Source: Planctomycetota bacterium (GTDB taxonomy: Bacteria > Planctomycetota > UBA1135 > UBA2386). From it: a stretch of DNA of 47,739 bases. The notes under the pieces are model-generated. The model saw only the letters and a program-made list of their open reading frames with translations, made no database searches and was not told the origin of the DNA. Below, piece by piece: positions 8,218-28,926 of the stretch (positions within the stretch are counted from its first letter, which is position 1; every line of letters begins with the position of its first letter). The position numbers and the translations under genes are program-made. The stretch is from contig JBASWX010000398.1 in assembly GCA_049276695.1 (NCBI GenBank), positions 1-47,739 on the forward strand. The letters run 5' to 3'.

Positions 8218-8394
8218 CTGGCTACCCGCTGGCTGGGAGGGACTGACCCGTAGCCCGGCGGACCAGCTGGATCGTTCCGCCTCCACACCCGCCGACGGGC
8301 GAACTTCTTGCCGGCCTGAACTGGTGCGAGTCTACTCCCGCGGCTCGATCGTCGGCGTGCGACCAAGGACTCGTCGCCAAGTCGGCTTCGCCCA

Positions 8395-12639: not shown

Positions 12640-12725
12640 TCGCTCCCGGACACTTCGGACAGCCGCTGCCTGTGTAGAACGGAACGGGCCATCGGTTCGC
12701 GCTCTGGTCTCTACGACCCGCGCGC

Positions 12726-13619
12726 ATGAACAAGCCAACCCAGGTCTTCCCCCGCTGCCCCATCACGACCGTCAACTACCACTGCTGGAAGCCGTGCAAC
12801 ATGCGCTGCCGGCACTGCTTCGCCCGCTTCAACGACGCCGGGCACGACAACCTGCCCCGCGAACAGATGCTGGCCGTCGTTCGCGAACTCGCGCTCGGCT
12901 TCGAGCGCATCACGTTCGTCGGCGGTGAGCCGACCCTGTGCCCCTGGCTGCCCGAGGCGCTCCAACTCGCGCACAGTCTCGGGCTCGCGACGAGCATGGT
13001 GACGAACGGCACCAAGATGCTGCGCGATCCGGCGCTGCGCGACGCCATCCTGGCGGGCATGGACTGGATCGGCCTCTCGGTCGACAGCGGCTGTGCCGAC
13101 ACCAACCGCGCGATCGGCCGCACGTATGGACGGTCGGTGATCTCGCCCGACGAACTGGCCACCCTTGCGGACTTCATCCACCGCGCCGGCGTTCAGCTGA
13201 AGGTCAACACCGTCGTGCAGCGCCACAACCTGGACGAGGATCTTGCCCCTCTGGTGCGGCGCCTGCGACCGGGTCGCTGGAAGCTGCTGCAGGTGCTCCC
13301 CGTCCGCGGACAGAACGACGCCGACTACATCGACCTGGCGATCACGCGCGACGAGTTCCAGCGATTCGTGGACTGCCACCGTCCGGTCGGCTCCTCCGGC
13401 ATCACGATCGTGCCCGAGGATCACGAACTCATGACTGGCAGCTACGCGATGGTCGACCCGGGCGGCTACGCCTACGACAACGTCGCCGGGCAGCATCGCT
13501 ACAGTTCCGCGCCCGTCCATCAGATCGGCTGGCGCACCGCGTTCACCGAGGTGCAACTGCTCGCCGAGCGATTCGTCGCCCGGGGCGGCAACTACGCGAG
13601 CCGGGGAGCCGAGCAATGA
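12726..13619 (+). CDS. Prokaryotic viperin (pVip), radical SAM enzyme
   Basis: The protein is collinear with my recollection of animal viperin (RSAD2). Matching blocks are VNYHCWKPCNMRCRHCF (CxxxCxxC), ERITFVGGEPTL, MVTNGTKM, DWIGLSVDS, LKVNTVVQRHNLDEDL..LRPGRWKLLQVLPVRGQN, IVPEDHELMTGSYAMVDP and ERFVARGGNY. Confidence 0.9.
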   Translation: MNKPTQVFPRCPITTVNYHCWKPCNMRCRHCFARFNDAGHDNLPREQMLAVVRELALGFERITFVGGEPTLCPWLPEALQLAHSLGLATSMVTNGTKMLRDPALRDAILAGMDWIGLSVDSGCADTNRAIGRTYGRSVISPDELATLADFIHRAGVQLKVNTVVQRHNLDEDLAPLVRRLRPGRWKLLQVLPVRGQNDADYIDLAITRDEFQRFVDCHRPVGSSGITIVPEDHELMTGSYAMVDPGGYAYDNVAGQHRYSSAPVHQIGWRTAFTEVQLLAERFVARGGNYASRGAEQ

Positions 13620-15475
13620 GCGCCACCTCGACGCCGACCTTCTTCCAGCTGCTCGACCTCGTGATCCAGGCGTTCCACCTCGACTTCGACGTCGACGAGC
13701 AAGGCCAGCCGATCGAGGTGCCAAGACTGAGCGGGGGCGGACCGTTCCAGCATCACTTCACGGGCCGCCGGTTCGACATCCAGGACCAGGGTCTGCAGAC
13801 GCTGCTGCGGACGTTCGGCGAGGCTCTGCTGCGCTCCGACATCATCCCGGTCATCCGCAAGTCGCTGCGGTGGGACGAACCCGGCAGCCGAGGGCCACTG
13901 GTGCAGCAGTACCTCGCCGATGCCGCGTCGGTGCCGGCTTGCAGCGGCGACCTCGGCGACGCCATCGTCGGGCGCCTCAGCTGGCTCGCGCAGGAGCACG
14001 AAGCCCTGCTCGGGGAAGCCCGTTCGCGAATCGCAGGTGCGGAGGTCGATCCGGCGTTCGGCCTCATGCCGCTGATGCGATTCGGCTGGCACCACCTGAC
14101 GGTCGCCCTGTCACTGCTGCCGTGGTCCGGTTCCATCGACGAACGCACTCTGGAACCAGACTCGGTCGAGATGACGTGGTGCATGGAGGTGCCGCCGACC
14201 ACGCCGATGAGCCGTGCCCGGGCAGCGGCCGGCAAGAGCCTCGACGAACTGACTCTCGACCTGGTCGGCGCCGACGGCAACCGCAACTGGAACGAGAAGA
14301 CCGTCGCGAACCTCGAGCACGGCGGTCCGGCGCACCCGACCTTCCAGGCCATCCACGCCGCTGCCTCGGTGCTGCATCCGCACGACCAGCTCGCCCTACC
14401 GCGGTGGCGTCGTTGGTACGGCTTGCGCCATCTCGCGCGCCAGTTCGCCAAGACCTGGTGTTGGGAGTGGCTGGGCGGGTGCCTGACCACCACGCTCACG
14501 CACGCGCACGCACAGTCCCAGGCCATGCGCGAATCGGATCTCGCGCAGGAGCAGCGGAGGACAGTGACCTCGATCGGCCTCTTCGCCGGCTGGCGGCTGG
14601 GGTTCGCTCGCTGGGCATTCGGCGAAGTGGCCCGCGCACCCGAGAACGACATCCATCCTGTGATTCGAGCCGACTACGCCGCAATCAGCCGGTCCGAGGA
14701 ATCGTCCCGCTTGACGACTTGCCTCCAGTTGGCCACCGGAGCGCGGTCCCTCGAGGCGACCTTGTTGGATCACGGCCGCAGCGCGTCGGCCGCCCGCCGG
14801 GAAGCGAGCCAGCTGATCTGGAACTTCCAGGGCAACCAGAGCCAGTTTCGGCATCTCCATCCGCTGGCGGAGTTGTTCCACTCCAGGAACGAGCGCAATT
14901 GGCCAGCCATGGAAGCGGCGGCGGGCAAGCTCGTCGAGCAGCGCCCGGACCTGTCCGACAACCACCGGGTGCTGGCCGAGGCTTTGGCCGATCAGAACCA
15001 CTTCGAAGACGCGCTTTCCGTCACCAGAGACGCGCTGACCCGGTTCCCGGCGGACGGAGGCTTGGCGATGACCGAGATCGCCGTGCTGATGATGCGTGGT
15101 GACCACCACACCGACCGCCACGACTTCGAGGTCGCTCGCGACAAGCTGCTGGCGATGCAGCTCACGGATGACGACTGGGTCCAGCACCTCCACCTCGCTG
15201 ACTGCCATCTGGCTCTCGGCGCCTGGGCAGCGGCTCGGGATGCGTGTAGGCGGGTGATCGCGACGAACGGCCAGTGCGGCGAAGCCCACGCGATCCTCTC
15301 CTTCTGCCGGTCGAAGCTCGGCGACGATCCGCGGAACACGGCTGCGAAGGCAGCGCGCCGTGGAGAGCAGGGCTTCGTCGACCTGCTGCACGAACTCGAC
15401 CGCCGCGGCGAACTCGGTACTGCGGCGCACCCGCCGGTCGCGCGCTGGCACCGACTCTGGCGATTCCGTCGCTGA
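13616..15475 (+). CDS. Uncharacterised 619-aa protein with an HTH-like segment and C-terminal TPR-like repeats; translationally coupled to the viperin
   Basis: The ATG at 13616 overlaps the viperin stop (ATGA). A possible XRE-like HTH is GKSLDELTLDLVGADGNRNWNEKTVANLEHGG. The C-terminal helical repeats are HRVLAEALADQNHFEDALSVTRDALTRFP..., HLADCHLALGAWAAARDACRRVIATNG and CGEAHAILSFC. The part of the track ORF upstream of 13616 is an out-of-frame overlap with the viperin. Confidence 0.75.
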   Translation: MSATSTPTFFQLLDLVIQAFHLDFDVDEQGQPIEVPRLSGGGPFQHHFTGRRFDIQDQGLQTLLRTFGEALLRSDIIPVIRKSLRWDEPGSRGPLVQQYLADAASVPACSGDLGDAIVGRLSWLAQEHEALLGEARSRIAGAEVDPAFGLMPLMRFGWHHLTVALSLLPWSGSIDERTLEPDSVEMTWCMEVPPTTPMSRARAAAGKSLDELTLDLVGADGNRNWNEKTVANLEHGGPAHPTFQAIHAAASVLHPHDQLALPRWRRWYGLRHLARQFAKTWCWEWLGGCLTTTLTHAHAQSQAMRESDLAQEQRRTVTSIGLFAGWRLGFARWAFGEVARAPENDIHPVIRADYAAISRSEESSRLTTCLQLATGARSLEATLLDHGRSASAARREASQLIWNFQGNQSQFRHLHPLAELFHSRNERNWPAMEAAAGKLVEQRPDLSDNHRVLAEALADQNHFEDALSVTRDALTRFPADGGLAMTEIAVLMMRGDHHTDRHDFEVARDKLLAMQLTDDDWVQHLHLADCHLALGAWAAARDACRRVIATNGQCGEAHAILSFCRSKLGDDPRNTAAKAARRGEQGFVDLLHELDRRGELGTAAHPPVARWHRLWRFRR

Positions 15476-15687
15476 ACCTACCCACGCCGACCAACGCGCT
15501 TCGACGTACGCGCCTTCGCAGGGCCTCAGCGCGTACGCCCACTGGTGGTCTGCGCCGGTGCGCGGTCAGCCCTGGTCTCGGCGCGGCAAGCGAGCCTTGC
15601 CCCTTGTGGAGTTCCGCACCCACGCTTCGTACTCTCCCGCGCCCCGGGGACTCCTCGACCGGACGAGGCTCCCCCACCTCTCCGACC

Positions 15688-16563
15688 ATGCCCAGTCTCG
15701 CCTACGTGAAGCACACCCGCATCAACCTGCGCGACACGGAGTACACCGAGAAGTGGCTGCAGGATCGGATCGCCGAGGATCCCTCCATCCTCGGCATCCC
15801 GGGCGATCTCGAACTGCTCGACCGCGAGCGCCGCCAGGAACGCGCCGGCCGCCTCGACCTGGTGCTCTACGACCGGGAGGCGGAACGGCGCTACGAGCTC
15901 GAACTGATGCTGGGCAGCCTCGACGAGAGCCACATCATCCGCACGATCGAGTACTGGGACCTGGAGCGCCGCCGCTACCCGGGCTACGAGCACATCGCGG
16001 TGATCGTCGCGGAAGACGTGACCGGTCGGTTCCTGAGCGTGCTCAGTCTGCTCGCCGGCACGATCCCGCTGATCGTGCTGCAGTGCCACGCGCTGCAGAT
16101 CGACGGCAGGCTGCTGCTGAACTTCGTGAAGGTGATGGACCAGACGTCACTGCGTCGCGACGACGAACACGAAGCCCGGGCCGAACCCGCGACGCGCGAG
16201 TACTGGATCGAACGCGTCGGCGGCGAGATCCTCACCGTCTGCGATCGCGCGGTCGAAGTCATGAACGGCAAGGCCAAGGGCAAGATGAGCCTGAACTACC
16301 TTCGCCAGTACATCAACATCAACGACGGGACCCGCAGTGGCGCGTTCGTCCACTTCGTACCGAAGAAGAAGTTCGTGCACTTCAAGATCGAGGTCCAGGA
16401 CGCTGCGTCGTGGATCGAGCGCATCGAGAAGACGGGTCTCGATGTCCGCCCCGGCCGCAACGGAGCGGCGGTGCGGGTGACCGTGATGCCGAAGGACTTC
16501 GACCGGTGCCTGCCGACGCTCACCGAGCTGCTGCAGACTGCGGTCACCGAGTACGAAGCTTGA
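15688..16563 (+). CDS. Restriction-endonuclease-fold (NucS/PD-(D/E)xK-like) protein with a C-terminal alpha/beta domain
   Basis: WLQDRIAEDPSILGIPGDLELLDRERRQERAGRLDLVLYDREAERRYELELMLGSLDESHIIRTIEYWD resembles the core of NucS-type nuclease-fold proteins, although the ExK lysine is not evident. GC3 is high. The stop lies 3 nt before the pglX start. Confidence 0.7.
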   Translation: MPSLAYVKHTRINLRDTEYTEKWLQDRIAEDPSILGIPGDLELLDRERRQERAGRLDLVLYDREAERRYELELMLGSLDESHIIRTIEYWDLERRRYPGYEHIAVIVAEDVTGRFLSVLSLLAGTIPLIVLQCHALQIDGRLLLNFVKVMDQTSLRRDDEHEARAEPATREYWIERVGGEILTVCDRAVEVMNGKAKGKMSLNYLRQYININDGTRSGAFVHFVPKKKFVHFKIEVQDAASWIERIEKTGLDVRPGRNGAAVRVTVMPKDFDRCLPTLTELLQTAVTEYEA

Positions 16564-16566
16564 GCG

Positions 16567-19500
16567 ATGATCGACCGCCAGGCCCTGCTCACCGACCTGC
16601 AGCCGCTCGTCGTCGAACTCGTCGAGGATCTGCGGACCCGACTCGCGGAACACCCGGCATCGAAGGCGCTCGTCGACGGCGACTACGACGCGGCGCGGAG
16701 GGCCGGGCGCACGGCACAGACGCTCGCGGCGTTCGCCGAGGATCACCTGACGCAGGTCGCGGTGGCGTGGGTGCTGGCGACGGTGTTCGTGCGGTTCGTC
16801 GAGGACAACCAGCTCTGCGACGAGCCATGGTTCTCCGGACCGGGCAAGCGGCTCGCTCAGGCCCGCGACCGCTACACCACCTGGCTGCGGAACAACAGCA
16901 AGCTCAGCGACCGCGAGTACCTGCTGCACGCGTTCGGGGCGCTGGGCAAGCTGCCGGGGCTCGCCCCTCTGCTCGGGCCGCAGAACACGCTGCTGCACCG
17001 GATCGGGCCGTCCGCCGACGGTGCGCGCACGCTGCGCGAGTTCTGGCAGCAAATCGAAGGGCAGGGCGACGCCTCGAACCTGACGCACGACTTCACCGAC
17101 CCCGCGGCGGACACGCGCTTCCTCGGCGACCTGTACCAGGACCTGTCGGAGTCGGCCAAGGACAAGTTCGCCCTGCTGCAGACGCCGATCTTCGTCGAGG
17201 AGTTCATCCTCGACCGCACGCTCGAACCGGCCCTCGCCGAGTTCGGGCTCGCGGAGGTGCGGCTGATCGATCCGGCCTGCGGGTCGGGGCACTTCCTGCT
17301 CGGGGCGTTCGCGCGGTTGTTTCAGCGTTGGTCGGATCGGGAGCCGGGAACGCCGGTGCAGGAACGCTGCAAGCGTGCGCTCGACGCGGTGGCTGGAGTG
17401 GACCTGAACCCGTTCGCTGTCGCGATCGCGCGCTTCCGGTTGTTGGTCGCGGCGCTGAAGGCGTGCGATGTGCGTCGGCTAGCCGAGGCGTACGACTTCC
17501 GACCGAAGGTCGCAAATGGCGACTCGCTGTTGCACGGCCAGCAGGGACTGCGGCAGCGGTCGTTCAGTGCCGAGGAGGAGGCGGAGTTCGACCACTTCTA
17601 CGGCAGCGAGGACAAGGCGCTGCTGAAGTCAATCTCCGCACGCAGCTACCACGCGGTAGTCGGGAACCCACCGTACATCGTGGCGCGCGACAAGGCGCTC
17701 AACGCCCTCTACCGGAAGCGTTTCCCCGAGGTATGCCATCGGCAGTACTCGCTTGCAGTGCCGTTCACGCAGGTGTTCTTCGAGCTCGCGCGACCGTCGC
17801 TCGACGAGAAGCGTGGGGCGGGTTTCGTCGGGGTGATCACGGCGAACTCGTTCATGAAGCGCGAGTTCGGCAGCAAACTGATCGAGGATTACCTCAACAG
17901 GCGCGTCGAGGTGTCACACGTAATCGACTTGTCTGACGCGAGCATTCCGGACCACAACACTCCGACCGCGGTCCTCCTGGGCAGAGCTCGGCCGCCCACC
18001 AGTCAGTCGATTCGAGCTGTGCGGGGCATCAAGGGAGAGCAGGGAATCCCAGACGACCCGACAAGGGGCTTGGTCTGGTTGTCAGTTCTTGACCAGGTGG
18101 ACAAGCCGGGCACGCAAAACGAGTACACAAGCTGCAGTGATGTGCCCCGAGAGCAGTTCGCACGCCATCCATGGAGCATCGGGGGCGGCGGCGCAACGGA
18201 GTTGAAGGCGCAGATCGAGGAGGTGTGCGAGAAGACGCTCACATCCCTCTCGGAGGCGCCAATCGGCCGTGCCGTCCGCATCGCCGAGGAAGAAGTGTTC
18301 ATGTTCCCCGGCAACCGTCGCCGTTACTCGAAGGCACCTGAACGCGAATTCCGAGGCTTCCTTGTCGGCGAGTCTCTTCGCGACTGGGGCAGCTCGATCG
18401 ACACCTGGGTCTGGTACCCGTACGAGGAGGGCGCTGACGCTTCTCCGATGCTGCGCGAGCTTTGGCCGTGGCGAACCAGCCTTGCGAACCGGTCTACGTT
18501 CCAAGGAAAGATGGCTGACGCGGGGCTCAGGTGGTTCGACTACATGCAGCACACGGCGTCTGCCTACTGCACCCCTCTGTCCATCGCCTTCGCCGAAGTC
18601 GCCACCCACAACCACTTTGTCCTCGACCGCGGCGGCAAGGTGTTCAAGCAAACGGCACCGGTCATCAAGCTGCCTGCTGGCGCCACCGAGGATGAGCACA
18701 TCGGCCTCCTCGGCCTGCTGAACAGTTCGGTCGCCTGCTTCTGGCTGAGGCAGGTTTGCCACAACAAAGGGCTCAGGGGTCAGAGCGGTGGGATTACCTC
18801 GGAGAAGTGGGAGCAGTTCTTTCAGTTCTCGGCAACGGCACTTGGCGAGTTTCCGGTGGCAGAGTTGAGGCCCGCCATTCGGGCGCGGCCGCTTGACGCG
18901 CTCGGATCTCAACTCGCTAGCGAGGTCACGACAACATCTGGCGCCGAGCACAGCAAGACGCTCGCGCACCTGATCGCTCTTCAAGAGGAGATCGACTGGG
19001 AGTGCTATCGGCACTACGGCATCCTGAAGGACGACTTGACGTTCCCAACAGCCGACGTCCCCCCCCTCCAACTCGGCCAGCGCGCGTTCGAAGTCGTCCT
19101 CGCACGCCAGCTCGCCGCCGGCAAGACCACGACGACGTGGTTCGAACGCCATGGCTCGACACCGATCACCGAGGTCCCCGCGCAGTGGCCCAAACCCTAC
19201 CGCGACCTCGTACAGCGCCGCATCGACTGCATCGAGAAGAACGCCGACATCCGCCTGATCGAGCAGCCCGAGTACAAGCGCCGTTGGAACGTCGAGCCGT
19301 TTGCCGAGCAGCTGCACCGCGCCCAGCGTTCCTGGCTGCTCGACCGCATGGAGGATCCCAGGTTCTGGCCCGAGCCGCGGCTCGTCAGCACCGCGCGCTT
19401 CGCCGAACAGCTTCGCCGCGACGCCGATTTCAAGCGGGTCGCCGACCTCTACCGCGGTCGCGACGACTACGACTTCGACGACCTCGTGCGCGAGCTCGTC

Positions 19501-20106
19501 GAGTCCGAGGCGGTGCCGTTCCTGCCCGTGCTGCGCTACAAGCTGTCCGGCCTGCGCAAGCTCGCCGACTGGGAAGCGACGTGGGCGCTGCAGCGCCGCG
19601 AGGATGCTGGCGAGAAGCTGAAGGACCCGATTCCCGTTCCACCGAAGTACACGAGTGCCGACTTCCTGAAGAGCACCTGGTGGTCGCTGCGCGGCAAGCT
19701 CGACGTCCCGAAGGAACGCTTCCTCCTCTACCCCTTCGCCGAACGCGGTGACGACCCGACCCCCGTGTTCACCTGGGCAGGCTTCGACCAGCAGCAGCAG
19801 GCCCACGCCCTTACCGCGCGCTACCAGGACCGGAAGCACCAGGATGCCGCCACGCCAGACCAGCTCTTCCCCCTGCTCACCGGCCTCCGCGAACTGCTGC
19901 CCTGGCTCCTCCAGTGGCACAACATCCCGACGACCGAAGCGCCGTCCGGCCTCGGCACCGAGTACCAGCGATTCCTCGCCAGCGAACTGCTCGCCCTCGA
20001 CAAGACCGAGAAGGACCTGACCGACTGGACGCCACCGGCGCGACCGCGCGGCCGCCGCGCTGCAAGGCGCGGCAACCGCCCGGATGCCAACGAGGTGGCT
20101 GACTGA
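16567..20106 (+). CDS. pglX: BREX adenine-specific DNA methyltransferase PglX
   Basis: The SAM-binding motif I is LIDPACGSGHFLLGAF and catalytic motif IV is VVGNPPYIV. The size is 1179 aa and the gene sits in BREX context. Confidence 0.9.
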   Translation: MIDRQALLTDLQPLVVELVEDLRTRLAEHPASKALVDGDYDAARRAGRTAQTLAAFAEDHLTQVAVAWVLATVFVRFVEDNQLCDEPWFSGPGKRLAQARDRYTTWLRNNSKLSDREYLLHAFGALGKLPGLAPLLGPQNTLLHRIGPSADGARTLREFWQQIEGQGDASNLTHDFTDPAADTRFLGDLYQDLSESAKDKFALLQTPIFVEEFILDRTLEPALAEFGLAEVRLIDPACGSGHFLLGAFARLFQRWSDREPGTPVQERCKRALDAVAGVDLNPFAVAIARFRLLVAALKACDVRRLAEAYDFRPKVANGDSLLHGQQGLRQRSFSAEEEAEFDHFYGSEDKALLKSISARSYHAVVGNPPYIVARDKALNALYRKRFPEVCHRQYSLAVPFTQVFFELARPSLDEKRGAGFVGVITANSFMKREFGSKLIEDYLNRRVEVSHVIDLSDASIPDHNTPTAVLLGRARPPTSQSIRAVRGIKGEQGIPDDPTRGLVWLSVLDQVDKPGTQNEYTSCSDVPREQFARHPWSIGGGGATELKAQIEEVCEKTLTSLSEAPIGRAVRIAEEEVFMFPGNRRRYSKAPEREFRGFLVGESLRDWGSSIDTWVWYPYEEGADASPMLRELWPWRTSLANRSTFQGKMADAGLRWFDYMQHTASAYCTPLSIAFAEVATHNHFVLDRGGKVFKQTAPVIKLPAGATEDEHIGLLGLLNSSVACFWLRQVCHNKGLRGQSGGITSEKWEQFFQFSATALGEFPVAELRPAIRARPLDALGSQLASEVTTTSGAEHSKTLAHLIALQEEIDWECYRHYGILKDDLTFPTADVPPLQLGQRAFEVVLARQLAAGKTTTTWFERHGSTPITEVPAQWPKPYRDLVQRRIDCIEKNADIRLIEQPEYKRRWNVEPFAEQLHRAQRSWLLDRMEDPRFWPEPRLVSTARFAEQLRRDADFKRVADLYRGRDDYDFDDLVRELVESEAVPFLPVLRYKLSGLRKLADWEATWALQRREDAGEKLKDPIPVPPKYTSADFLKSTWWSLRGKLDVPKERFLLYPFAERGDDPTPVFTWAGFDQQQQAHALTARYQDRKHQDAATPDQLFPLLTGLRELLPWLLQWHNIPTTEAPSGLGTEYQRFLASELLALDKTEKDLTDWTPPARPRGRRAARRGNRPDANEVAD

Positions 20107-21182
20107 TGTTCACGCTCCGGCTCCCAACTCCCAGCGGAGCCCCAGAGGTGTTCGATGTTCATCGGGTCCAGCCGATCGAGCTGACCGCCTTTTCCCGTTT
20201 CGTTTCCGGCAGGACTACCTCCTTCCGCGTGCGGATCCGCGGGCGTGCGCACACCGCGGCGGCCGCCCATGCTGACGTGCGCTGGTTCGATCTGAGCGTT
20301 CGTTACGATCAAGGTCTCAGACACTTCGCCCTCGTGCCCGGAGGTGTGCTGCCGCCGGACTTCGTGCTGCGCGGCGGCACTCGAGTGCTCATGGACCGGA
20401 ACGTGGTCTCGGACCTGCGGCAGATGCCCGCGGTCGACGTCGGCGCTCCGCACCAGCTGCGATGGCTCGATGTCGACGGCTTCCATGTGAATCCCATCCT
20501 CGGCGTCGTCGAGGGGTCCAAAAGACGTCCGCAGACGTTCGGCGAGTTCGAACGCGAGTACACCCGAGCCGAGAGGTTGGTCGCCCGGCGTCTGCCGCGG
20601 GCGAAGGTCGTGCAGTTCTCCGGCAGCAAGCGGAGGATGATGTTCGACATGCATCTGGAGTTCGCGCCTCGCGCGGCACGGGAGGGGCAGTTCCTTCGAG
20701 GGATCGCGGGCCGCCTCGCCGAACAGGTGCCTGATCGGGACCTCCGCACGACCGAGCAGTTCGTCTTGCAGGCTGCAGCGCAGGCCGGCCTTCAGCCAAT
20801 GACCGCGGTCGTGTTGACCGCCCTTGCGAAGCTCCACGAGGGCAGGCACGGCTCACCGGCCGCCAAGCTGCTGAAGCTGAGGGAACTCCGTGACGCTGGA
20901 GGCGACTGGCAGGGCTGCGCCTACAACGCCGTTGCCGACGTTCGGCAGATGGAGTTGCTTTCGAACGGGATCGCGATGCCCGACTTCGTCGCGGGGTTGA
21001 CCGGTGACCTGGGGCTCGCGCAGGTGTGGTGTGGTCTACGCCCCACGGGAGTGAAACTCTGCGACGGCAGGGTTGGGTTCTACTTCCGCCTCGATCCCGC
21101 ACTGTTCCCTCGTCTCGACGGGACGACCGAGGACCTCATCGAGCGCATCAACGCCGGCGGCACCGCCGCCGCCGGAGGCTGA
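20106..21182 (+). CDS. Hypothetical protein, first gene of the cassette coupled to pglX (weak PIN-like pattern)
   Basis: The ATG shares one base with the pglX stop (TGATG). The acidic-residue pattern VLMDRNVVSDL ... NPILGVVEG ... YNAVADVRQMELL loosely recalls PIN-like nucleases. No secure family assignment. Confidence 0.7.
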   Translation: MFTLRLPTPSGAPEVFDVHRVQPIELTAFSRFVSGRTTSFRVRIRGRAHTAAAAHADVRWFDLSVRYDQGLRHFALVPGGVLPPDFVLRGGTRVLMDRNVVSDLRQMPAVDVGAPHQLRWLDVDGFHVNPILGVVEGSKRRPQTFGEFEREYTRAERLVARRLPRAKVVQFSGSKRRMMFDMHLEFAPRAAREGQFLRGIAGRLAEQVPDRDLRTTEQFVLQAAAQAGLQPMTAVVLTALAKLHEGRHGSPAAKLLKLRELRDAGGDWQGCAYNAVADVRQMELLSNGIAMPDFVAGLTGDLGLAQVWCGLRPTGVKLCDGRVGFYFRLDPALFPRLDGTTEDLIERINAGGTAAAGG

Positions 21183-21443
21183 GGCTGGGATGCCCAGGGG
21201 AAAGATGGAACCCGACCACGGTCAAGAGCGCGCCGTGGTCGTCGATCGAGAACAGCACTCGCGTCGTCGTCGTGCCCTCGGCAAGGCCCGAGAAGGACCT
21301 TGACCGACTGGGGGCCCCCGGCGCGAACGCGCCGCCGCCGCCGCGCCCGGCACCAACCGACGACGGTTCACCGTCCCGCGCCCGGGGGATGACCGCCCGC
21401 GGATTGGGTGCGGATGCGCACCGGATCGATCGGATCGTCGGCC

Positions 21444-21471
21444 TTGACAAAGGGGACGCCCGACGTAGCTT
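21444..21471 (+). promoter_or_regulatory. Candidate sigma70-like promoter in the 340-bp gap before the ORF at 21523
   Basis: TTGACA (21444-21449), then 16 nt, then TAGCTT (21466-21471). The -10 match is weak and promoter rules for this lineage are uncertain. Confidence 0.2.
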
Positions 21472-21522
21472 CCCCGCCTGAGCCGATGTGGCTCGCCCGC
21501 GCAGCCGGGATCCGCTGCAGCC

Positions 21523-22170
21523 TTGCGACCCATCGATGTCATGAAGACCAGACTGATCATCCTCGCGGACGGTGCCCTGCTGCACGTTCGCAACGCGAAG
21601 GCCAAGGAGAGAACCCCCGAGACAAGGGACCGCACCGCCGAAGTGCCGCCACCCGTCCTGGACTTCCTCAAGCTGCCGGCCGCGATCGCGAAGCAGCTCG
21701 ATGTTCAGACGCCGCCGATCGCCGACTGCCACTGGTTCATGGTCGGCGCGGCGAACGCTGCCAAGTTCATCGAGACGATCAGCCAGGCATGGTCGGTCCA
21801 CGAGTTCCCGTTGCGGGCATTCACGATCGGACCAGTGACTGGCGATGCGCAGGCCAGGTTCACGCCCGCGATCTCGTGGGCGCTCGGCAACATCGCCAGC
21901 AGCAACCTGAAACCGACGGTGGTCGTGCTCAGCAACGACGCCGGCGTCATCTTCCCCGCCAAGTTCACGATCGATCGCGGCGCAGCCGACGTCATGCTCG
22001 CCTGGCCCGATCCGCTCAGTGAAGAATCCCGCTATTTCGCGGATTGGAACGAGGTGCGCGTGCTGCCTCTCGAGCCGAACGACGTGCGTGCCCCTGGGCA
22101 CCGCCCATCGTTCGGTCGCACGTTCCTTGTGCAGAGCGATCCAGATGGGTCGCCGAAGCGCAAGGCCTGA
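21523..22170 (+). CDS. Hypothetical protein (weak NYN/LabA-like pattern)
   Basis: RLIILADGALL near the N-terminus and VVVLSNDAGVIFPAKFTIDRGAADVMLAW loosely recall the DG.N and SGDSD segments of NYN/LabA RNase-fold proteins, in degenerate form. An alternative ATG start is at 21541. Confidence 0.6.
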   Translation: MRPIDVMKTRLIILADGALLHVRNAKAKERTPETRDRTAEVPPPVLDFLKLPAAIAKQLDVQTPPIADCHWFMVGAANAAKFIETISQAWSVHEFPLRAFTIGPVTGDAQARFTPAISWALGNIASSNLKPTVVVLSNDAGVIFPAKFTIDRGAADVMLAWPDPLSEESRYFADWNEVRVLPLEPNDVRAPGHRPSFGRTFLVQSDPDGSPKRKA

Positions 22171-22265
22171 TCGACTCCGCCCTCTTCGTTCGGACCGGAG
22201 GGCAAGCTGCGAAGGGACGATCCCTTCGCGGTGAATCGTGGTCCGTCGATTCTCAAGGATTGGTC

Positions 22266-22499
22266 ATGCATGCAGTCACCGTCACCGGTGTCCCGAACCT
22301 GAGGGATGCGCACCGGATGTGGTTGAACCTCGGCGGCGAGGTCACGTTTCCCGCGGGTACGGGCGAGATCCTGTTCTCGCACCCTGACGTCGGAAAGATC
22401 CGCGTCAACTACCGGCGCAAGGACAGCTCTCGCAAACTCGTTTCAAAGCTGCGCCGCCTCATCTCGCTGTGCGCCGACGGCGTGAAGGGGGCCCGGTGA
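22266..22499 (+). CDS. Small hypothetical protein (77 aa; HicA-like pattern without the catalytic His)
   Basis: TGEILFSHPDVGKIRVNYRRKDSSRKLVSKLRRL parallels the HicA segment GSHHIFKHPD..G.VTVPHPKKDL.....SILKQ. Its stop overlaps the next start (GTGA). Confidence 0.5.
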   Translation: MHAVTVTGVPNLRDAHRMWLNLGGEVTFPAGTGEILFSHPDVGKIRVNYRRKDSSRKLVSKLRRLISLCADGVKGAR

Positions 22500-23074
22500 A
22501 GAGCTTCCCTCCGATCCGGTTGGACTTGGCGGACGGTCGCGCTCGCCGCATCGACGCTTCCGGGGTCGCGATGTTCGTTCACGAGGTCCTTCTCCACCCA
22601 GCGCGCAACCTCCCCGTCGTCGGCGTGACCACGAGCCCGGACTACGATGGATGCTTGGTCGACGAGCAGCTTCTCGCCGCCAAGCTTCGCGACGTCGCGC
22701 CGGTCGTGGTGATCGCGACGGGGCGGGCGACTTGGTTGCTGACCGAGGCGCTGTCGCGCAACCTGAGTGTCCACCACGGCTACGTCCGCGTCTGGATGCC
22801 GCGCCTGCGGTGTAGTTCGCCCGAGTCCGCCAACCCGCGCATCCAGATCGACTGTGATCGCGAGGCCGATGCCGTGGCCTCGCGGGTCTTGCTGGCCGCC
22901 CGCTTTGGACTGCGGTTGGGCAACGACAAGTGTTCGCCCCGCGCGCCTGCCGGAGTCTCCGGTCCAGCCCGGTCGCTCGTGAAGACCGGAGGCTCGGGCG
23001 TACCCTTCGACCCACAGGGCCCCCTTGCGGACGTACTGGGCTGGCAGCACGGCGACAGCTGGTCACCGCTGTAG
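22496..23074 (+). CDS. Hypothetical protein
   Basis: The GTG at 22496 overlaps the upstream stop. The ~190-aa product has protein-like composition and no recognisable motif. Its 3' end overlaps the convergent HNH-like gene by 12 nt. Confidence 0.55.
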   Translation: MKSFPPIRLDLADGRARRIDASGVAMFVHEVLLHPARNLPVVGVTTSPDYDGCLVDEQLLAAKLRDVAPVVVIATGRATWLLTEALSRNLSVHHGYVRVWMPRLRCSSPESANPRIQIDCDREADAVASRVLLAARFGLRLGNDKCSPRAPAGVSGPARSLVKTGGSGVPFDPQGPLADVLGWQHGDSWSPL

Positions 23075-23782
23075 CCAACTTCGAGGGCGTCGGTGCGAAG
23101 GTGCGCCGACGCCCTCGGCGACTGCTTGCTGGACGTACGCCAGGAACCAGACGCGACGATAGAACGTGCCCACCCAGAGGCTGGTCGGCTCGTTCGGCTG
23201 TGGAAACACCGCGTACTCGAACACGTCCCCAATCTGATGGATGTGGTCTTGGGGCCGTTCGCCGAAGAGTTGTCTCGTGGCAGCGGGAATCCGGTGCCCG
23301 AACTGTTCGAGGTGCACTCGCACCACGCAGTCCCGTGGCAGTGGCATGCCAGCCTCGATGAAGAACAACCCGCGAATCGTCTGGCGGACCACCGCCTGTA
23401 GCCGAGGGATGTTCACACGCAGGCCCACACCGCGGCCGACGTAGACGCCGCCGGGCGACTTGATGGCGACGTTGACGAACGCGTTGCGGACCTCGTCGGC
23501 GAGCCACTGCGTCCCTGGTCGCCAGAACGAGCGCGCGACCACAGCGCGAACCTTGCTTGCCGTCGGGCAGTCGGCCACGTTGGCCGAGGCAGCGATCACC
23601 GCCCGGAAGTACTCGCCGTCCTTCGCCCAGGACCGGTTGCACTCCGCGCAGGCCGGCACGGTGATCAGGTTCCCAGGCCGCGGCGGCGGGAAGAGACACC
23701 CCGGCGGAACGTGATCCCGGGTCGTCGCCTGTCGGCGCTGGCAGAACACGCAGACTTGTTGTTGGGCCACCACTTGTGTCAA
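23063..23782 (-). CDS. HNH-like (Cys-rich) endonuclease domain protein
   Basis: The N-terminus CVFCQRRQATTRDHVPPGCLF...NLITVPACAECN is a CxxC ... DH ... CxxCN arrangement typical of HNH/His-Me finger nucleases. The remaining ~180 aa are uncharacterised. Confidence 0.7.
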   Translation of the reverse strand: MTQVVAQQQVCVFCQRRQATTRDHVPPGCLFPPPRPGNLITVPACAECNRSWAKDGEYFRAVIAASANVADCPTASKVRAVVARSFWRPGTQWLADEVRNAFVNVAIKSPGGVYVGRGVGLRVNIPRLQAVVRQTIRGLFFIEAGMPLPRDCVVRVHLEQFGHRIPAATRQLFGERPQDHIHQIGDVFEYAVFPQPNEPTSLWVGTFYRRVWFLAYVQQAVAEGVGAPSHRRPRSWLQR

Positions 23783-23858
23783 TCCGAACTAGCCGACCGC
23801 CCGCCGCGTTTCACGTTCAGTACGGGAAAGCCGCGCTGGTTCGCGGCCGTCTCCGCCG

Positions 23859-24771
23859 TCACCCTGCTGGCCAAGTAACTGCGATCGGACTCCTCTCGAT
23901 CAGGCGGAAGCTGACGTTGCGAATGTTGCGCCCATCGAGGCCAAGCGCCTCGGAGTTGTCGAGCGGCTTCCAGCGCCCGACGGTCTTGGCGGGGGCGTTC
24001 GCCGACACGCCGATCATGTTGGCCGGGCTCTTCGACCAGCGCTTGGCTTCGGTCAGCAACAGGAACACCACGTTCCCGTCGGTCTCGCACACGAGTTGCT
24101 TCACCGTTCCGGTGTACAGGACGCCGACCTTGCCGTCGGGGCCAAGTTCATCGCCCTGGATCACATCGACGTAGACGCGAGCCACCCTACCAACGCCGCC
24201 TTGGACCTCCGACGACCGCTGCAGCAGTACCGCCGCCTTCTGCAGCACGAGCCAGTGGCTGGCGCCGAGCGGCTGGAAGAGATCGGAAACCCGCAGGACT
24301 CGCAGCACACGCTCGACGCGCGACGAGATGCGAAACCAGATCCGGTCCCACCATCCAAGGTCGGTACTCTCTAGACCGAAGTTGCGGATCGCGAATCCGG
24401 TCAACGCCGCATGGTGAAGCGTCGCGCACGCTGCGCCGGTTGCGACGGTGAAGAACCCGAGCACTGCCGCTCCCGCCAGCAGGGGCAGCGGAAGCCCCAG
24501 CATCGTGGTGAGGATTCGGGCCCGTTCGTCGCTATTCGTGCCCACCAGCAGAGTGGCGAGACCTCGGCAGTGCTCCCCTTCGAACGGCAGCTTGGCGTAC
24601 ACCAAGAGGGAGGAACCAATCAGCGCCGGCGAAGAAGAGGAGCCCGAAGATCCGCGTTCCGAGACTCGACTGCCGAATGGCGCGGCTGCGCGGGCTGAGC
24701 GCCAGGGCGAGGCTGACGAACCCGGGGATGAGGAACAGCGCGGCGAGGAGCGTGCTCTCGAGTAGCGGCAT
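23859..24771 (-). pseudogene. Multi-TM membrane protein interrupted by an apparent frameshift
   Basis: The ORF starting at 24771 (MPLLESTLLAALFLIPGFVSLALAL...IFGLLFFAGADWF) has high GC3 until about 24615. High GC3 then continues in the 23859-24827 frame from about 24605 (LVYAKLPFEGEH...MLGLPLPLLAGAAVLGFFTV...). If the genes are separate, the second could start at GTG 24602 or ATG 24503. Confidence 0.5.
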
Positions 24772-24783
24772 GCGAGGTGGCCG

Positions 24784-25068
24784 CTACGGCTTGATCCCCT
24801 TGATGAACTCGTCGCGATCAGCCTCACTGACTTCCCTGCAGATCCAGCCGGGTCCAGAAGGCTCGGCCTTGATCCACTTCAGCCGCCGCAGCGAATCGGG
24901 GTTGCCGAGGTCGAGACCGGACCCGACGGTCGTGTACGCCTCGAGCTTCCTGATGTGCGGCAACACGACGATGATGCCTTGCTCCGGGCCGGTCAGCGCG
25001 GCCAACTGGCTCTGGATCAGCACCTCGAGGGTGCGGAAATGGCCGAGCGTGTCGTTGGTCGTCGTCAT
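24784..25068 (-). CDS. Small hypothetical protein (94 aa), first gene of the minus-strand trio
   Basis: ATG-initiated ORF divergent from pglY, with protein-like composition. The next minus-strand ORF starts 12 nt downstream. Confidence 0.5.
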   Translation of the reverse strand: MTTTNDTLGHFRTLEVLIQSQLAALTGPEQGIIVVLPHIRKLEAYTTVGSGLDLGNPDSLRRLKWIKAEPSGPGWICREVSEADRDEFIKGIKP

Positions 25069-25287
25069 CGTGGTCTCACGCTTCTAGATCGAACGGACCG
25101 CGGAGCAACCGAGAGGAGCTTCGACCGCGGGATCCTATCGCCGCCTCGGAAGACTGGATGCCGGACCTTGCTCTTGCCCAACGACCGAACGGCTCGGTCG
25201 GGCGCCGCGAACTCCCCTGACCTGTGGAAAGTCACTACCGCAGGCTCCGGCGGTTCGCCATCATCCGTCCTCCGAGGAAGCGGCACG

Positions 25288-28200
25288 ATGACCCTGCTGA
25301 AGGACCTGATCCAGATCCCCGAGCAAGTCCACAAGGGCGACTTCGTGCTCAAGCTGGCCGAGGGCGTCCAGCACCCGGCCGAGACCCTCGGCGACTACGT
25401 CATCACCGAGCAGATCCGGACCGCGTTCGACCAGGCGCTGACCCTGATCAAGAGCGCGCTCGCCGGCAACCAGAGCAAGGCGGCGTTCCTGCACGGCAGC
25501 TTCGGCAGCGGCAAGAGCCACTTCCTCGCCGTACTGCACCTGCTGCTCGCGCACAACCCGGAGGCGCGCAGCAACCCCGACCTCGCACCGGTCGTGAAGA
25601 AGCACGGCTGGCTCGACGGCAAGAAGTTCTTGCTGGTGCCGTTCCACATGATCGGCCGTGGCAGCCTCGAGCAGGCCGTCTTCGATCAGTACCAGTCGTA
25701 CGTTCGGCGGCTGCATCCGGAGGCGACTGTTCCTGCCGTGTTCCTGGGCGAACCCGTGCTGCAGCAGGCCGAGGTGCTGCGGGCGCAGCTCGGTGACGAA
25801 AAGCTGCTGGCGACGCTCGGCGGTGGCGGCGGTCTGCGGAAGCGCGGAGGGTGGACGATCGACCGCTACCACGCCGCACGGTCAGCGCCGCCGAACGACG
25901 CAGAACGACTCTCCCTGATCTCGGCGATCGTCACGAACCTGCTGCCCGGGTACGCGAGCGTCATCGGCGCCGGGGACCGCGAAGGCTTCGTTCCGATCGA
26001 CGAGGGCCTCGGGACGCTGAGCCGCCACGCCAAGGAGCTGGGCTACGACGCCCTGCTGCTGTTCCTCGACGAAGTGATCCTGTGGCTGGCAAGCATGGTC
26101 TCGGATCAGACCTTCGTGAATCGCGAGGGGCCAAAGCTGTCGAAGCTGGTCGAGTTTCAGACCCAGCGGGACCTGCCGATCGTGTCGTTGCTGGCGCGCC
26201 AGCGCGACCTGCGCGAACTGGTCGGGGAACACGTTCCCGGCGCGGAGAAGCTTAGCTTCCTGGACGCGCTGAAGTTCTGGGAAGGTCGCTTCGACACCAT
26301 TCGCCTCGAGGACAAGAACCTGCACGTCATCGTCGAGCGCCGCCTGCTGAAGCCGACGAGCGACAACGCCCGGGTGCAGATCGACGGCGCGTTCGCGGAG
26401 ACGAGAAAGCTCCGGCAGGAGGTCCAGGACATCCTGCGCACCAGCAGCTACACCGACGAGGACTTCCGCCGCGTCTACCCGTTCACGCCGGCCCTCGTCC
26501 AGGTGATCGTTGCGGTCAGCTCGGTGCTGCAGCGCGAACGCACGGCGATTCGGGTGCTGATGCAGCTGCTGGTCGACCAGCGTGAGACCCTGCGCCTCGG
26601 CCAGATCGTTCCGGTCGGCGACCTGTACGACGCGATCGCCGATGGTGACGAGCCGTTCGGCGAGGGACAGCGCGTGATGTTCGACGCGTGCCGCAAGCTG
26701 TACCGGAACAAGATCCGCCCGCGCCTGTGCCACGACCAGGGCCTGGCCTGGGACGCGATGCAAGAGCTGCCGGCGACCGACCCCAAGCGGCAAGCGTTCG
26801 CGCGGGACGATCGGCTGATCAAGACCCTGCTGCTCGCGTCGCTGGCACCCGAAGTCGAAGCGCTGAAGAACCTGAACGCGCAGAAGCTCGTCGCGCTGAA
26901 CCACGGCACCTTCAAGTCGGCGATCCCGGGCCAGGAGACGAGCACCGTCCTCAACAAGCTCCAGAACTGGGCCGCCGACATCAGCGAGATCCAGTCCGAG
27001 GGCGACCCGAAGAACCCGACGTGGGCGCTGCGCATCCTCGGGGTCGACACCGCGGCGATCCTGGAGAAGGCGCGCCACAACGACAACCCGGGCAACCGCA
27101 AGATCAAGGTCCGCGAGATCCTGTTCGGGCGGCTCGGCATCGAGTGGAAGGACGAGTTCGAAGTCGTGCACGAACACGTCTGGCGCGGCACGCGGCGGCG
27201 ACTGACGGTCGTCTACGGCAACGTGCGCGAGATGCCGCCCGCGTCGCTGAGGGCCCGCGGTGACGACTGGAAGCTCGTGATCGACTTTCCGTTCGACGAG
27301 GAGGGGCACGAGCCGAAGGAAGACCTCGAGAAGGTGGAGGCGTTCCGCGAGAAGGAAGGCAGCTCGCGCACCGTCTGCTGGCTGCCGGCCTTCCTGTCGC
27401 GCGAACGCCAGGCCGACCTCGGCAGCCTCGTCGCGCTCGACTACGCGCTCGCGAGCGAGGCACGCTTCCACGACCTCGCGGCGCACCTGCCACCGGCCGA
27501 ACGGGCACAGGCACGGGCCCAGCTCGACAGCCAACGTGGCATGCTGCGGGCGCGCATCGAACAGGCGCTCGAGGCTGCCTACGGGCTCGGCAAGGAGCAA
27601 CCCGGCATGCTCGGGGCCTCGTTGCCGATCGAAGAGCGTATCCAGTGCCTCGATTCGGTCCGCGTGCTGCCGCGCCCGGTGGCGACGCTCGGTTCGGCAC
27701 TCGGGGAACTGTGCGATCAGATGCTGCGACTGCAGTTCCCGAAACACCCCGACTTCGGCGTCGAGATCAAGGCCGGCGTTCTCGGGCGGGTGTTCGGCTG
27801 GGTGCAAAAGGCCGCACGCGCCGACATGCACCGGGTGGTCGTCGACAAGGAACGCCGCGCGGAGCTGCGAGCTGTGGTGCAGCCGCTCGACCTCGGCGAC
27901 GTCCACGAGGATGCCTTGGTGTTGCGCCATGGCTGGAGCGATCTGTTCACCCGCTGCACGGCGCAGGCCGGCGGCGCGATGACGGTGGGCTTGATGCGCG
28001 GATGGACCGACCAGCCCGAACCTCGCGGGCTGCCGCCCGAGGTCCAGGACCTGCTGATCCACACCCACGCCGAACTGAACAACTTGCGGTTCTTCCTGCA
28101 CGGCGGCCCGGTGACTCCGGCGCCGGGGGCCCGCCTGCTCGACGAGTACGAGCTGAAGCCGCAGCCGTTGCCGAGCCAGGCGCACTTCGATTCGGCCCGC

Positions 28201-28926
28201 GATCGGTCGCACCGCGGCTTCGGCGTGCCGGTCGGCGAGGTCCTCGGCGCAACCAACGTCGCGGCATTGATCGACGGCGTCTGCCGCGAGTGCGCCGCAC
28301 TGCCGGCGGCTCGCGACCTGTCGGTGCAACTGCGCGAACGCTGCAAGGCTCTCGGCCTGCCGGTCCAGGAGGTCCCGCGCGGCAGGTCGGCGCTCGCCGT
28401 CGTCACCGTGCTAGAGGCGCTCGAGAAGGCCGACCCGGCGCTGTTCGTCGAGCGTCTGGCCACCGTGGACCTGCCGTGCTCGTGGGAAGTGTTCGGCTCG
28501 AGCCTGAAACAGGCCGGTCCGGTCGCCCAGGCGCTGCGGGACACGCGCTGGACCACCATGGAGAGCGCGTTCTCGCTCGCGACCAAGGACGCGGACGCCA
28601 AGCGGCTGCGCGACGACGTGCTCGCACTCGTCAGCGCCGACGAACTCGCCGTGCCCTTGCCCGCCAGGCTGCGGGCACTCGAGGCCAAGGCCGAGGAGAT
28701 CGTGAGCCGGGCGGTTGCTCCACCCCCACCACCGAGACCCTCACCGCAGCCGGGGCCGGGTGTGCCACCGACGTCGCCGCAGGTTATGGTCGTCGAGCAG
28801 GGCGAGCGGGAGGCGCTCGATAGCAAGGCATTCGAACAGCTCAGCCGGGACCTGCAGCAGAAGCTGACGGCCAGCGGCGGCACCCTGTCGCTGTCGTGGC
28901 GCATCGAGAGGAAGCCGAAGCCGTGA
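25288..28926 (+). CDS. pglY: BREX P-loop ATPase PglY
   Basis: Walker A is FLHGSFGSGKSHF and Walker B is LLLFLDEVILWL. The product is ~1212 aa. GAGGAAG lies 7 nt upstream of the ATG at 25288. The track ORF start at 24955 is an unsupported extension. Confidence 0.9.
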   Translation: MTLLKDLIQIPEQVHKGDFVLKLAEGVQHPAETLGDYVITEQIRTAFDQALTLIKSALAGNQSKAAFLHGSFGSGKSHFLAVLHLLLAHNPEARSNPDLAPVVKKHGWLDGKKFLLVPFHMIGRGSLEQAVFDQYQSYVRRLHPEATVPAVFLGEPVLQQAEVLRAQLGDEKLLATLGGGGGLRKRGGWTIDRYHAARSAPPNDAERLSLISAIVTNLLPGYASVIGAGDREGFVPIDEGLGTLSRHAKELGYDALLLFLDEVILWLASMVSDQTFVNREGPKLSKLVEFQTQRDLPIVSLLARQRDLRELVGEHVPGAEKLSFLDALKFWEGRFDTIRLEDKNLHVIVERRLLKPTSDNARVQIDGAFAETRKLRQEVQDILRTSSYTDEDFRRVYPFTPALVQVIVAVSSVLQRERTAIRVLMQLLVDQRETLRLGQIVPVGDLYDAIADGDEPFGEGQRVMFDACRKLYRNKIRPRLCHDQGLAWDAMQELPATDPKRQAFARDDRLIKTLLLASLAPEVEALKNLNAQKLVALNHGTFKSAIPGQETSTVLNKLQNWAADISEIQSEGDPKNPTWALRILGVDTAAILEKARHNDNPGNRKIKVREILFGRLGIEWKDEFEVVHEHVWRGTRRRLTVVYGNVREMPPASLRARGDDWKLVIDFPFDEEGHEPKEDLEKVEAFREKEGSSRTVCWLPAFLSRERQADLGSLVALDYALASEARFHDLAAHLPPAERAQARAQLDSQRGMLRARIEQALEAAYGLGKEQPGMLGASLPIEERIQCLDSVRVLPRPVATLGSALGELCDQMLRLQFPKHPDFGVEIKAGVLGRVFGWVQKAARADMHRVVVDKERRAELRAVVQPLDLGDVHEDALVLRHGWSDLFTRCTAQAGGAMTVGLMRGWTDQPEPRGLPPEVQDLLIHTHAELNNLRFFLHGGPVTPAPGARLLDEYELKPQPLPSQAHFDSARDRSHRGFGVPVGEVLGATNVAALIDGVCRECAALPAARDLSVQLRERCKALGLPVQEVPRGRSALAVVTVLEALEKADPALFVERLATVDLPCSWEVFGSSLKQAGPVAQALRDTRWTTMESAFSLATKDADAKRLRDDVLALVSADELAVPLPARLRALEAKAEEIVSRAVAPPPPPRPSPQPGPGVPPTSPQVMVVEQGEREALDSKAFEQLSRDLQQKLTASGGTLSLSWRIERKPKP

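Follow-up and report, generated by a model that had tools for sequence, protein, structure and literature searches.

Two separable candidate defence modules between pglX and pglY of a type 2 BREX locus from a Planctomycetota bacterium

We have analysed a stretch of 47,739 nucleotides from a Planctomycetota bacterium (NCBI GenBank assembly GCA_049276695.1, contig JBASWX010000398.1), referred to below as the window, and in particular four genes, O1 to O4, that lie between pglX and pglY of a type 2 bacteriophage exclusion (BREX, or Pgl) locus. The gene arrangement in related loci indicates that these are two separately exchangeable cargo modules and not one four-gene system. More specifically, we read O1 and the triad O2-O3-O4 as two independent, horizontally exchangeable modules that occupy the variable bay separating pglX from pglY in a complete type 2 BREX locus, a reading whose probability we put at roughly 0.55. 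The features on which the argument turns are given below; related loci are designated L001, L002 and so on.

16567..20106, forward strand: pglX, the BREX type 2 methyltransferase (PADLOC PglX, E=0; Pfam Eco57I, MmeI_Mtase and DUF7008)
20106..21182, forward strand: O1, 358 amino acids
21274..21341, forward strand: relic of the 3' end of pglX, degenerate and in direct repeat with 19993-20058 (87% identity over 68 bp with two indels)
21541..22170, forward strand: O2, 209 amino acids from the ATG at 21541, or 215 from the in-frame TTG at 21523
22179-22203 and 22207-22231, forward strand: two conserved hairpins in the O2-O3 spacer (RNAalifold, four loci)
22266..22499, forward strand: O3, 77 amino acids
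22496..23074, forward strand: O4, 192 amino acids
25285..28926, forward strand: pglY, the BrxC/PglY ATPase (PADLOC BrxC-PglY, E=0), at the end of the variable bay

An earlier note on this DNA had listed four co-directional open reading frames at 20106-23074, and these are indeed present on the forward strand with sizes of 358, 215, 77 and 192 amino acids. The same note took them for a single cassette. This did not hold when their homologues were examined for occurrence as a conserved block, as O1 and the triad proved separable, occurring independently and in permuted order. O1 is found without the triad in at least six loci, namely in L002, L003 and L035/36, and in every non-BREX context found (L026, L012/L030, L031 and others). 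The triad is found without O1, next to a DUF4238 gene, in L004/5/6, and the Planctomycetota locus L007 has the order O2-O3-O4-O1. Distant O2-like genes also stand alone, adjoining ThsB-type TIR genes.

The spacer between O1 and O2 (340-358 bp) provides a further indication. It contains the degenerate copy of the pglX 3' end, which was identified by a blastn comparison of the window with itself and a MAFFT alignment of the 3' ends that pglX has in the window, L001 and L020. Because the relic at 21274-21341 copies 19993-20058, O1 is bracketed by a duplicated pglX terminus, which implies that O1 came, or was swapped, along with such a terminus. Upstream of O1 in L002 there is a fainter similarity to the end of pglX, 32 bp in length. 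A small gene in the O1-O2 gap was also considered, given the coding-like GC content at the third codon position (GC3) of that gap, but this signal is better explained by the relic that lies there.

Moreover, the two parts have diverged to different extents. Between the window and L001 the synonymous divergence (dS) is 0.43-0.55 for O2-O4, 0.80 for pglX and 1.19 for O1, and the DNA similarity restarts about 100 bp upstream of O2 and ends at the O4 stop codon. A very recent transfer of the triad, considered in view of the 93% identity of O2 to its counterpart in L001, was rejected: the DNA identity (82%) is within the range of pglX (77-86%), and therefore only a somewhat lower dS is claimed for the triad. 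Taken together, the separate occurrence, the permuted order, the relic and the differing dS argue that O1 and the triad have separate histories.

The interval in which the four genes lie is a hotspot for swapped defence cargo, since every related locus recovered that spans the gap holds different cargo, 5-8 kb in length, between pglX and pglY. The order of genes from pglX to pglY in these four loci is as follows.

L001: 239-aa protein, Schlafen/AlbA_2, O1, O2, O3, O4
L002: Schlafen, O1, 119-aa protein, NACHT
L003: Schlafen, O1, PDC-M07A (ABC ATPase), PDC-M07B (PIN), DUF3037, Fic
L007 (Planctomycetota metagenome-assembled genome): Schlafen-like, 227-aa protein, O2, O3, O4, O1, IetA, IetS

It had been assumed that a canonical type 2 BREX runs from pglX directly into pglY. 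This is contradicted by the related loci and by the Streptomyces coelicolor prototype, where the pglWX and pglYZ operons lie 6 kb apart (PMC4365076). As a filled gap is the norm in type 2 BREX, the filled junction of the window is no anomaly. The placement of the four open reading frames between pglX and pglY was correct, but the gap is 5.2 kb in size and not 3 kb; it extends up to 25284 and also contains a module on the minus strand (23063-25068) that includes an HNH-type gene.

Recruitment of defence genes to such positions has been described as 'guilt by embedding' inside BREX, DISARM, restriction-modification (R-M) or Hma loci, in a study where 7 of 9 embedded candidates were validated and, as its authors state, most embedded genes were neither mobile-element nor housekeeping genes (Payne et al., bioRxiv 10.1101/2024.01.29.577857). 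In addition, 'auxiliary and backup effectors' of BREX have been reported (PMC12839542). The general idea of the earlier note, to regard BREX-embedded genes as candidates for defence, had already been published in these two studies. The Schlafen/AlbA_2 protein of about 392 amino acids that lies between pglX and O1 in L001 (8728-9903), L002 (1334-2512) and L003 (3063-4247) had no match in PADLOC v2 and is probably one of the BREX-linked Schlafen RNases of PMC12839542.

The O1-O4 region has many long overlapping open frames on both strands, at a GC content of 68% for the window. The GC3 of O1-O4 (0.81-0.84) is close to the 0.85 of pglX, and the GC content at the second position (0.47-0.52) is the same as in pglX. 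Homologues at 33-93% identity, other phyla included, exist for all four, and the pairwise ratios of nonsynonymous to synonymous divergence (dN/dS) of 0.08-0.43 indicate purifying selection on each of them; we therefore regard them as real genes. The conservation of O1 and O4 reaches residue 1 or 2, so that the starts at 20106 and 22496 are upheld, and the recorded window proteins (344 amino acids for O1 and 139 for O4) are too short. The start of O2 is most likely the ATG at 21541, because its homologues begin with MKTRLIIL.

Both of the tight junctions that had been pointed out earlier were confirmed. At the first (TGATG) the stop codon of pglX, TGA at 20104-20106, and the ATG of O1 at 20106-20108 have the A in common. 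The sequence CTGATGTTC, which comprises the stop of pglX, the start of O1 and Phe, occurs at this junction in four distinct BREX-2 loci, the O1 proteins of which are 36-76% identical to that of the window. At the second (GTGA) the GTG of O4 at 22496-22498 overlaps the TGA of O3 at 22497-22499. All four triad loci have an overlap of O3 and O4, which is GTGA in two of them and TGATG in the other two (4 or 1 nt).

O1 represents a large family. An exhaustive profile search yielded 424 representative clusters (50% identity) at E<=1e-3 and 309 at E<=1e-10; a word-indexed search found 12 relatives only. Two diverse sets of 47 and 24 members gave no match to Pfam, PADLOC or NCBIfam, and the O1 sequence had none in the PDB. 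The N-terminal domain of the protein (about residues 1-75) is variable and beta-rich, whereas its core is conserved and carries D97/N99, E136, N274/D278 and T299-x-D301. Across the family the first 75 residues or so are variable or absent, and they are absent in the member that lies in an R-M context. D97, D278 and D301 do not vary in either of the two diverse alignments. N274, T299 and W308 never vary in one of them and are near-invariant in the second, and N99, P130, E136 and K257 are near-invariant. In order, the motifs read LMDRNVVSDL, a glutamate 39 residues on, AYNAxADxR and LTGDxxLAxxW; together (LMDRNVVSDL, E136, N..AD and LTGD..L) they resemble the four PIN motifs of VapC and FitB. 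The PIN-like acidic pattern that had been noticed in O1 before is invariant across the 47-member alignment, and O1 has the conserved acidic residues expected of a PIN domain (D, E, D, and D in T/S-x-D). We classify O1 as PIN-like by motif, unproven.

The close homologues of O1 for which the context could be read are all located in type 2 BREX between pglX and pglY. On the Allochromatium vinosum plasmid pALVIN01 an O1-like gene (L026, 7028-7894) directly follows hsdR-hsdM-hsdS, and converges on the gene of a 1756-aa RecQ-family helicase. In Sinorhizobium and on an Aminobacter plasmid (L012, 5269-10834; L030, 516-6834) the O1-like gene is the last of an operon with an SF1 helicase and a PLD protein. 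The order in this conserved operon is SF1 helicase (AAA_11/12), PLD-like nuclease with a MarR domain and O1-like gene; the operon faces the gene of a UvrD helicase bearing a Top1 zinc ribbon, and looks like an undescribed defence-type operon. On an Agrobacterium vitis plasmid (L031) the O1-like gene faces a Shedu gene and an Iet-like pair of AAA-ATPase and S8-peptidase genes, and the copy in Aurantiacibacter has a restriction endonuclease gene close by. Pairs of an AAA-ATPase and an S8-peptidase gene are found beside O1-like genes in two unrelated replicons (L007, 12723-16222; L031, 8391-12087); the pair of L007 matches PADLOC IetA/IetS, and that of L031 was identified from its annotation alone. 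The phage collection had no tblastn match to O1. A comparison of 16 neighbouring proteins, by hidden Markov models and all-against-all BLAST, revealed neither a partner gene common to the O1-like neighbourhoods nor any O2-, O3- or O4-like protein. O1 is best read as a stand-alone effector that is often linked to a modification module.

The first protein of the triad, O2, was predicted to have a NYN/LabA-like fold, in line with the degenerate pattern of this kind that the sequence had suggested. The AlphaFold2 model, although of modest confidence (predicted local distance difference test score, pLDDT, 63.9), has as its top Foldseek match the LabA/NYN-like protein VPA0982 (2qip; E 7.6e-5, probability 1.0, template modelling score on the target 0.66), and also matches the NYN domains of MARF1 (5yaa, probability 0.99, and 6fdl). 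D11, N19, D42 and S132-x-D134 are invariant in the nine family members, and O2 thereby has the N-terminal D..N and C-terminal S-x-D of the NYN/LabA RNases (the MARF1 NYN domain and VPA0982). The dN/dS for O2 is 0.08-0.22, and IMG/VR contained no relatives. We consider O2 a putative RNase with a modelled NYN/LabA-like (PIN-superfamily) fold.

O3 is small and basic, shows TGE and RRKDS as invariant motifs in the alignment of its homologues, and has no Pfam or PDB match. Its proposed likeness to HicA could not be sustained: Pfam HicA_toxin gave no match at E<=1, hhalign against E. coli HicA (6hpb_A) gave a probability of 0.9%, and in a hand alignment to HicA, itself without statistical support, the invariant T-G-E takes the place of the G-S-H site, so that the catalytic histidine is lacking.

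The earlier note recognised none of the four as a named defence gene. This stands for O1 to O3, which have no PADLOC match, and has to be qualified for O4, which matches HEC-07 over its N-terminal domain (PDLC04161, 2.4e-13), as do its homologues (4 of 4, best 1.4e-15). The matching alpha/beta domain, about residues 16-107, aligns to positions ~150-260 of the HEC-07 profiles of ~530-553 positions. HEC-07 itself is an AdoMetDC-like, thioredoxin-like and RelE protein that, as a validated single-gene defence, protected E. coli from phages. Like O4, it is embedded in a larger defence locus and has an RNase-type module as its neighbour or fusion partner; unlike O4 (192 amino acids, corresponding to the central region only) it comprises ~530-550 amino acids and has its RNase in cis, whereas any RNase of O2-O3-O4 would come in trans from O2 or O3. 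An eS12/L7Ae-like match of O4 in the PDB (E 0.016) is too weak to use.

The spacer of about 90 bp between O2 and O3 forms two hairpins with a total of 17 pairs, 7 of which show compensatory changes among the four loci. In the alignment 89.7% of the cells are paired, versus 37-59% with slid partners, and none of 500 shuffles exceeded the covariation score; the folds of the single sequences have z values of -1.4 to -2.7. The hairpins are GC-rich, have no U-tract behind them and no Rfam match. With four sequences from different lineages, their conservation is suggestive.

Library scans gave little else. O1 to O4 had nothing usable in Pfam, NCBIfam or PHROGs, and O1 to O3 had chance-level matches only among PDB sequence profiles. 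PADLOC v2 gave for the cassette no match for O1, O2 and O3, the partial HEC-07 match for O4 and no complete listed system. The plasmid and phage collections had no DNA match for the region, nor was there a tblastn match on plasmids for O2, O4 or the minus-strand gene M1. Scans for Rfam families and for sigma-70 promoter and terminator patterns (19500-25500 and 19800-25400) found nothing. The papers searched contained no description of the O1-like or O2-O3-O4 families. The earlier proposal stands in that the genes are real, lack matches in Pfam, NCBIfam and PHROGs and are set in a defence context, but not in that they form one new four-gene system.

How might the two modules act? In module A, O1 would be translated from the pglX message by stop/start coupling. 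The core of O1 would hold a PIN-like metal-binding set (a strand-end D-x-N, a glutamate ~39 residues on, N..D and T-x-D) and would make it a Mg2+-dependent nuclease, probably an RNase, that could serve as a backup or abortive-infection effector beside the modification enzyme. Possibly it is silenced by PglX, as PrrC is by EcoprrI. PrrC consists of an ABC-ATPase-like N-domain and an anticodon nuclease domain. Like O1 it is a single putative nuclease gene tied to modification or specificity genes, in its case those of the EcoprrI type I R-M locus, but it has no sequence or domain relation to O1, and that PglX would silence O1 is conjecture, drawn from the linkage to modification genes alone. Module B would consist of the RNase O2, the double hairpin and the coupled pair O3-O4, and may be a toxin-antitoxin-like RNase defence module, in which O3-O4 would form a sensing or regulating complex with O2 as the effector, and the hairpins would set the relative expression of O2 and O3/O4. 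This toxin-antitoxin-like view is the least secure part of our proposal. We would give only a low probability to a more far-reaching version, in which O1 would be the founder, linked to BREX, of a widespread and undescribed family of PIN-like 'guard' nucleases. These would be coupled, in translation and physically, to a methyltransferase or specificity subunit (PglX in type 2 BREX, HsdM/S in type I R-M) and set free to cause abortive infection once a phage inhibits this subunit, an independent invention of the PrrC logic, and O2-O3-O4 would be a new three-component RNase defence with the HEC-07 sensor domain in trans.

Several observations weigh against the two-module reading and the functions attached to it. 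The contexts are few, with about 22 of O1-like genes and 4 of the triad, and O1 and the triad occur together in 3 of the 8 BREX loci seen (the window, L001 and L007), so that a functional link is possible. For all four proteins nuclease activity, defence function and the direction of regulation are putative. With respect to O1, E136 and D278 lie ~140 residues apart, which is unusual for PIN: unlike the VapC and FitB toxins, O1 would have a helical insert of this length between motifs 2 and 3, and it also lacks a profile or fold match and an adjacent small antitoxin gene. Its AlphaFold2 model has a pLDDT of 67.6, which falls below 50 over the C-terminal residues 287-358, and Foldseek found no match to its fold in PDB and BFVD. 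The hhalign comparison with a genuine PIN protein (PDC-M07B of L003) gave a probability of 0.1%, and that with the O2 profile was negative as well. In view of the spacing, the absence of a fold match and the negative hhalign result we make no firm PIN call and claim no fold for O1. Moreover, several O1-like genes are located on plasmid backbones or backbones like those of integrative and conjugative elements (ICEs), without an obvious defence neighbour. O2 differs from the NYN/LabA RNases in that it has no match at E<=1 to Pfam NYN (PF01936) or PADLOC HEC-09, and in that the second aspartate of 'SxDxD' is replaced by G, A or P in the nine-member alignment. MARF1 has three conserved catalytic aspartates (D358, D426 and D452). 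Because of the missing aspartate and the lack of a Pfam NYN match, O2 may be catalytically dead. HEC-09, for its part, gave no defence in published tests. Finally, the RelE effector domain that HEC-07 has, with its conserved histidine, is missing from O4.

An alternative that we consider unlikely is that O1, instead of being an autonomous effector, is an accessory subunit belonging to one subclade of type 2 BREX; it would bind or regulate PglX (its methylation, or the PglX toxicity noted for Pgl), and its acidic residues would have another role. The recurrent overlap of pglX and O1 in four loci, with O1 identities of 36-76% to the window protein, the position between pglX and pglY of all close homologues with readable context and the O1-like gene that follows those of the M and S subunits in a type I R-M system would all fit, as would the description of Pgl, methyltransferase included, as toxin/antitoxin-like (PMC4365076). 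However, a Schlafen-like gene separates O1 from pglX in L001-L003, and members of the wider family are carried by plasmids and ICE-like elements where no methyltransferase is near. In addition, the best-conserved residues of O1 look catalytic rather than interface-like, and many members, including the one linked to R-M, lack the N-terminal domain, which would be the part most likely to be specific for a partner.

Equally doubtful is the view that the genes are non-defence cargo, namely addiction (toxin-antitoxin) or mobile-element maintenance genes in a recombination-prone bay that would add nothing to phage immunity. It would account for the O1-like genes beside ParDE, RadC/DUF3560, ParAB/AlpA, integrases and transposases, for the O3/O4 overlap, which resembles that of a toxin-antitoxin pair, and for the duplicated pglX end as a trace of recombinational turnover. 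The genes that replace O1-O4 at the same position in related loci are nevertheless defence systems or candidates (PDC-M07, Iet and a ThsB-like TIR), most embedded candidates of Payne et al. (7 of 9) were validated, and O4 has a domain in common with the validated HEC-07; toxin-antitoxin and defence roles can, moreover, coexist.

That O1-O4 constitute one four-gene defence or BREX-accessory operon coupled to pglX seems improbable to us. All four genes are co-directional behind pglX, and O1 adjoins the triad in the window, L001 and L007. Against this stand the loci and non-BREX contexts with O1 but no triad, the loci with the triad but no O1 and the permuted L007, as well as the pglX-end relic in the O1-O2 gap and the unlike divergence of the two parts. 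The last possibility, that some or all of the frames are spurious products of a high GC content, as the many long overlapping frames on both strands might suggest, is effectively refuted by the conservation data (the homologues in other phyla, a dN/dS below 0.45 for all four and the conserved start/stop couplings) together with the frame-specific GC3.

The setting of the two modules, defence genes embedded in BREX, is thus a known one, and the O1-like and O2-O3-O4 families are new candidates within it. As with other BREX-embedded defence genes, O1-O4 are co-directional genes nested between core BREX genes with nuclease-type folds (PIN-like and NYN-like, and HNH on the other strand), and related loci hold recognised systems at the same position; unlike those, none of O1, O2 and O3 is recognised by a PADLOC v2 model. 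Current views are not overturned, as the embedding of backup effectors in BREX has been documented before. The remaining interest lies in the size of the O1-like family, the recurrent fusion of its start to the pglX stop and the triad with its HEC-07 domain. How type 2 BREX/Pgl works mechanistically remains obscure, and the interval between its pglX and pglY genes acts as a bay in which defence modules are swapped. At least 424 clusters of O1 relatives have gone unannotated, with a likely nuclease site kept and the start repeatedly fused to the pglX stop; if O1 does guard PglX, this would explain how BREX-2 hosts punish anti-BREX phages. O2-O3-O4 would be a compact module that joins a NYN-fold protein to a sensor-like domain of a validated defence protein. 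Both candidate families could enter the databases of defence finders.

The remainder of the bay is taken up by the minus-strand cargo module (23063..25068), which was delineated by GC3 in each frame and is missing from the otherwise collinear L001.

25068->24784, minus strand: M3, 94 amino acids
24771->24532, minus strand: M4, 79 amino acids, two apparent transmembrane helices
about 24506->23859, minus strand: M2, ~215 amino acids, an apparent transmembrane segment
23782->23063, minus strand: M1, HNH-like (PADLOC PDC-M01B, 2e-5; Pfam HNH_5, weak; PHROG HNH)

The call of 322 amino acids for M2 probably has its start too far upstream, as the N-terminal portion shows no GC3 signal.

The host locus is complete, with PglW, PglX, PglY (BrxC), PglZ, BrxD and BrxHI all present. 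PADLOC matched PglW, PglX, BrxC-PglY, PglZ and BrxHI, and BrxD is 83% identical to BrxD of L001. The genes outside the pglX-pglY interval are as follows.

8320-12639: PglW (PADLOC/Pfam)
12678-13619: prokaryotic viperin (PADLOC pVip, 8e-79)
directly downstream of the viperin gene: TPR protein
downstream of the TPR gene, with its end just short of pglX: unknown protein of 290 amino acids
28824-31571: PglZ
31601-32875: BrxD
32826-34976: BrxHI

The open frames of pglY and pglZ (28824-28926) and of BrxD and BrxHI (32826-32875) overlap by tens of bases. The run of viperin, TPR and 290-aa genes between pglW and pglX (12678-16563) forms a second embedded cargo set, the order of which is kept in L001 and L020, with two extra small genes in the latter.

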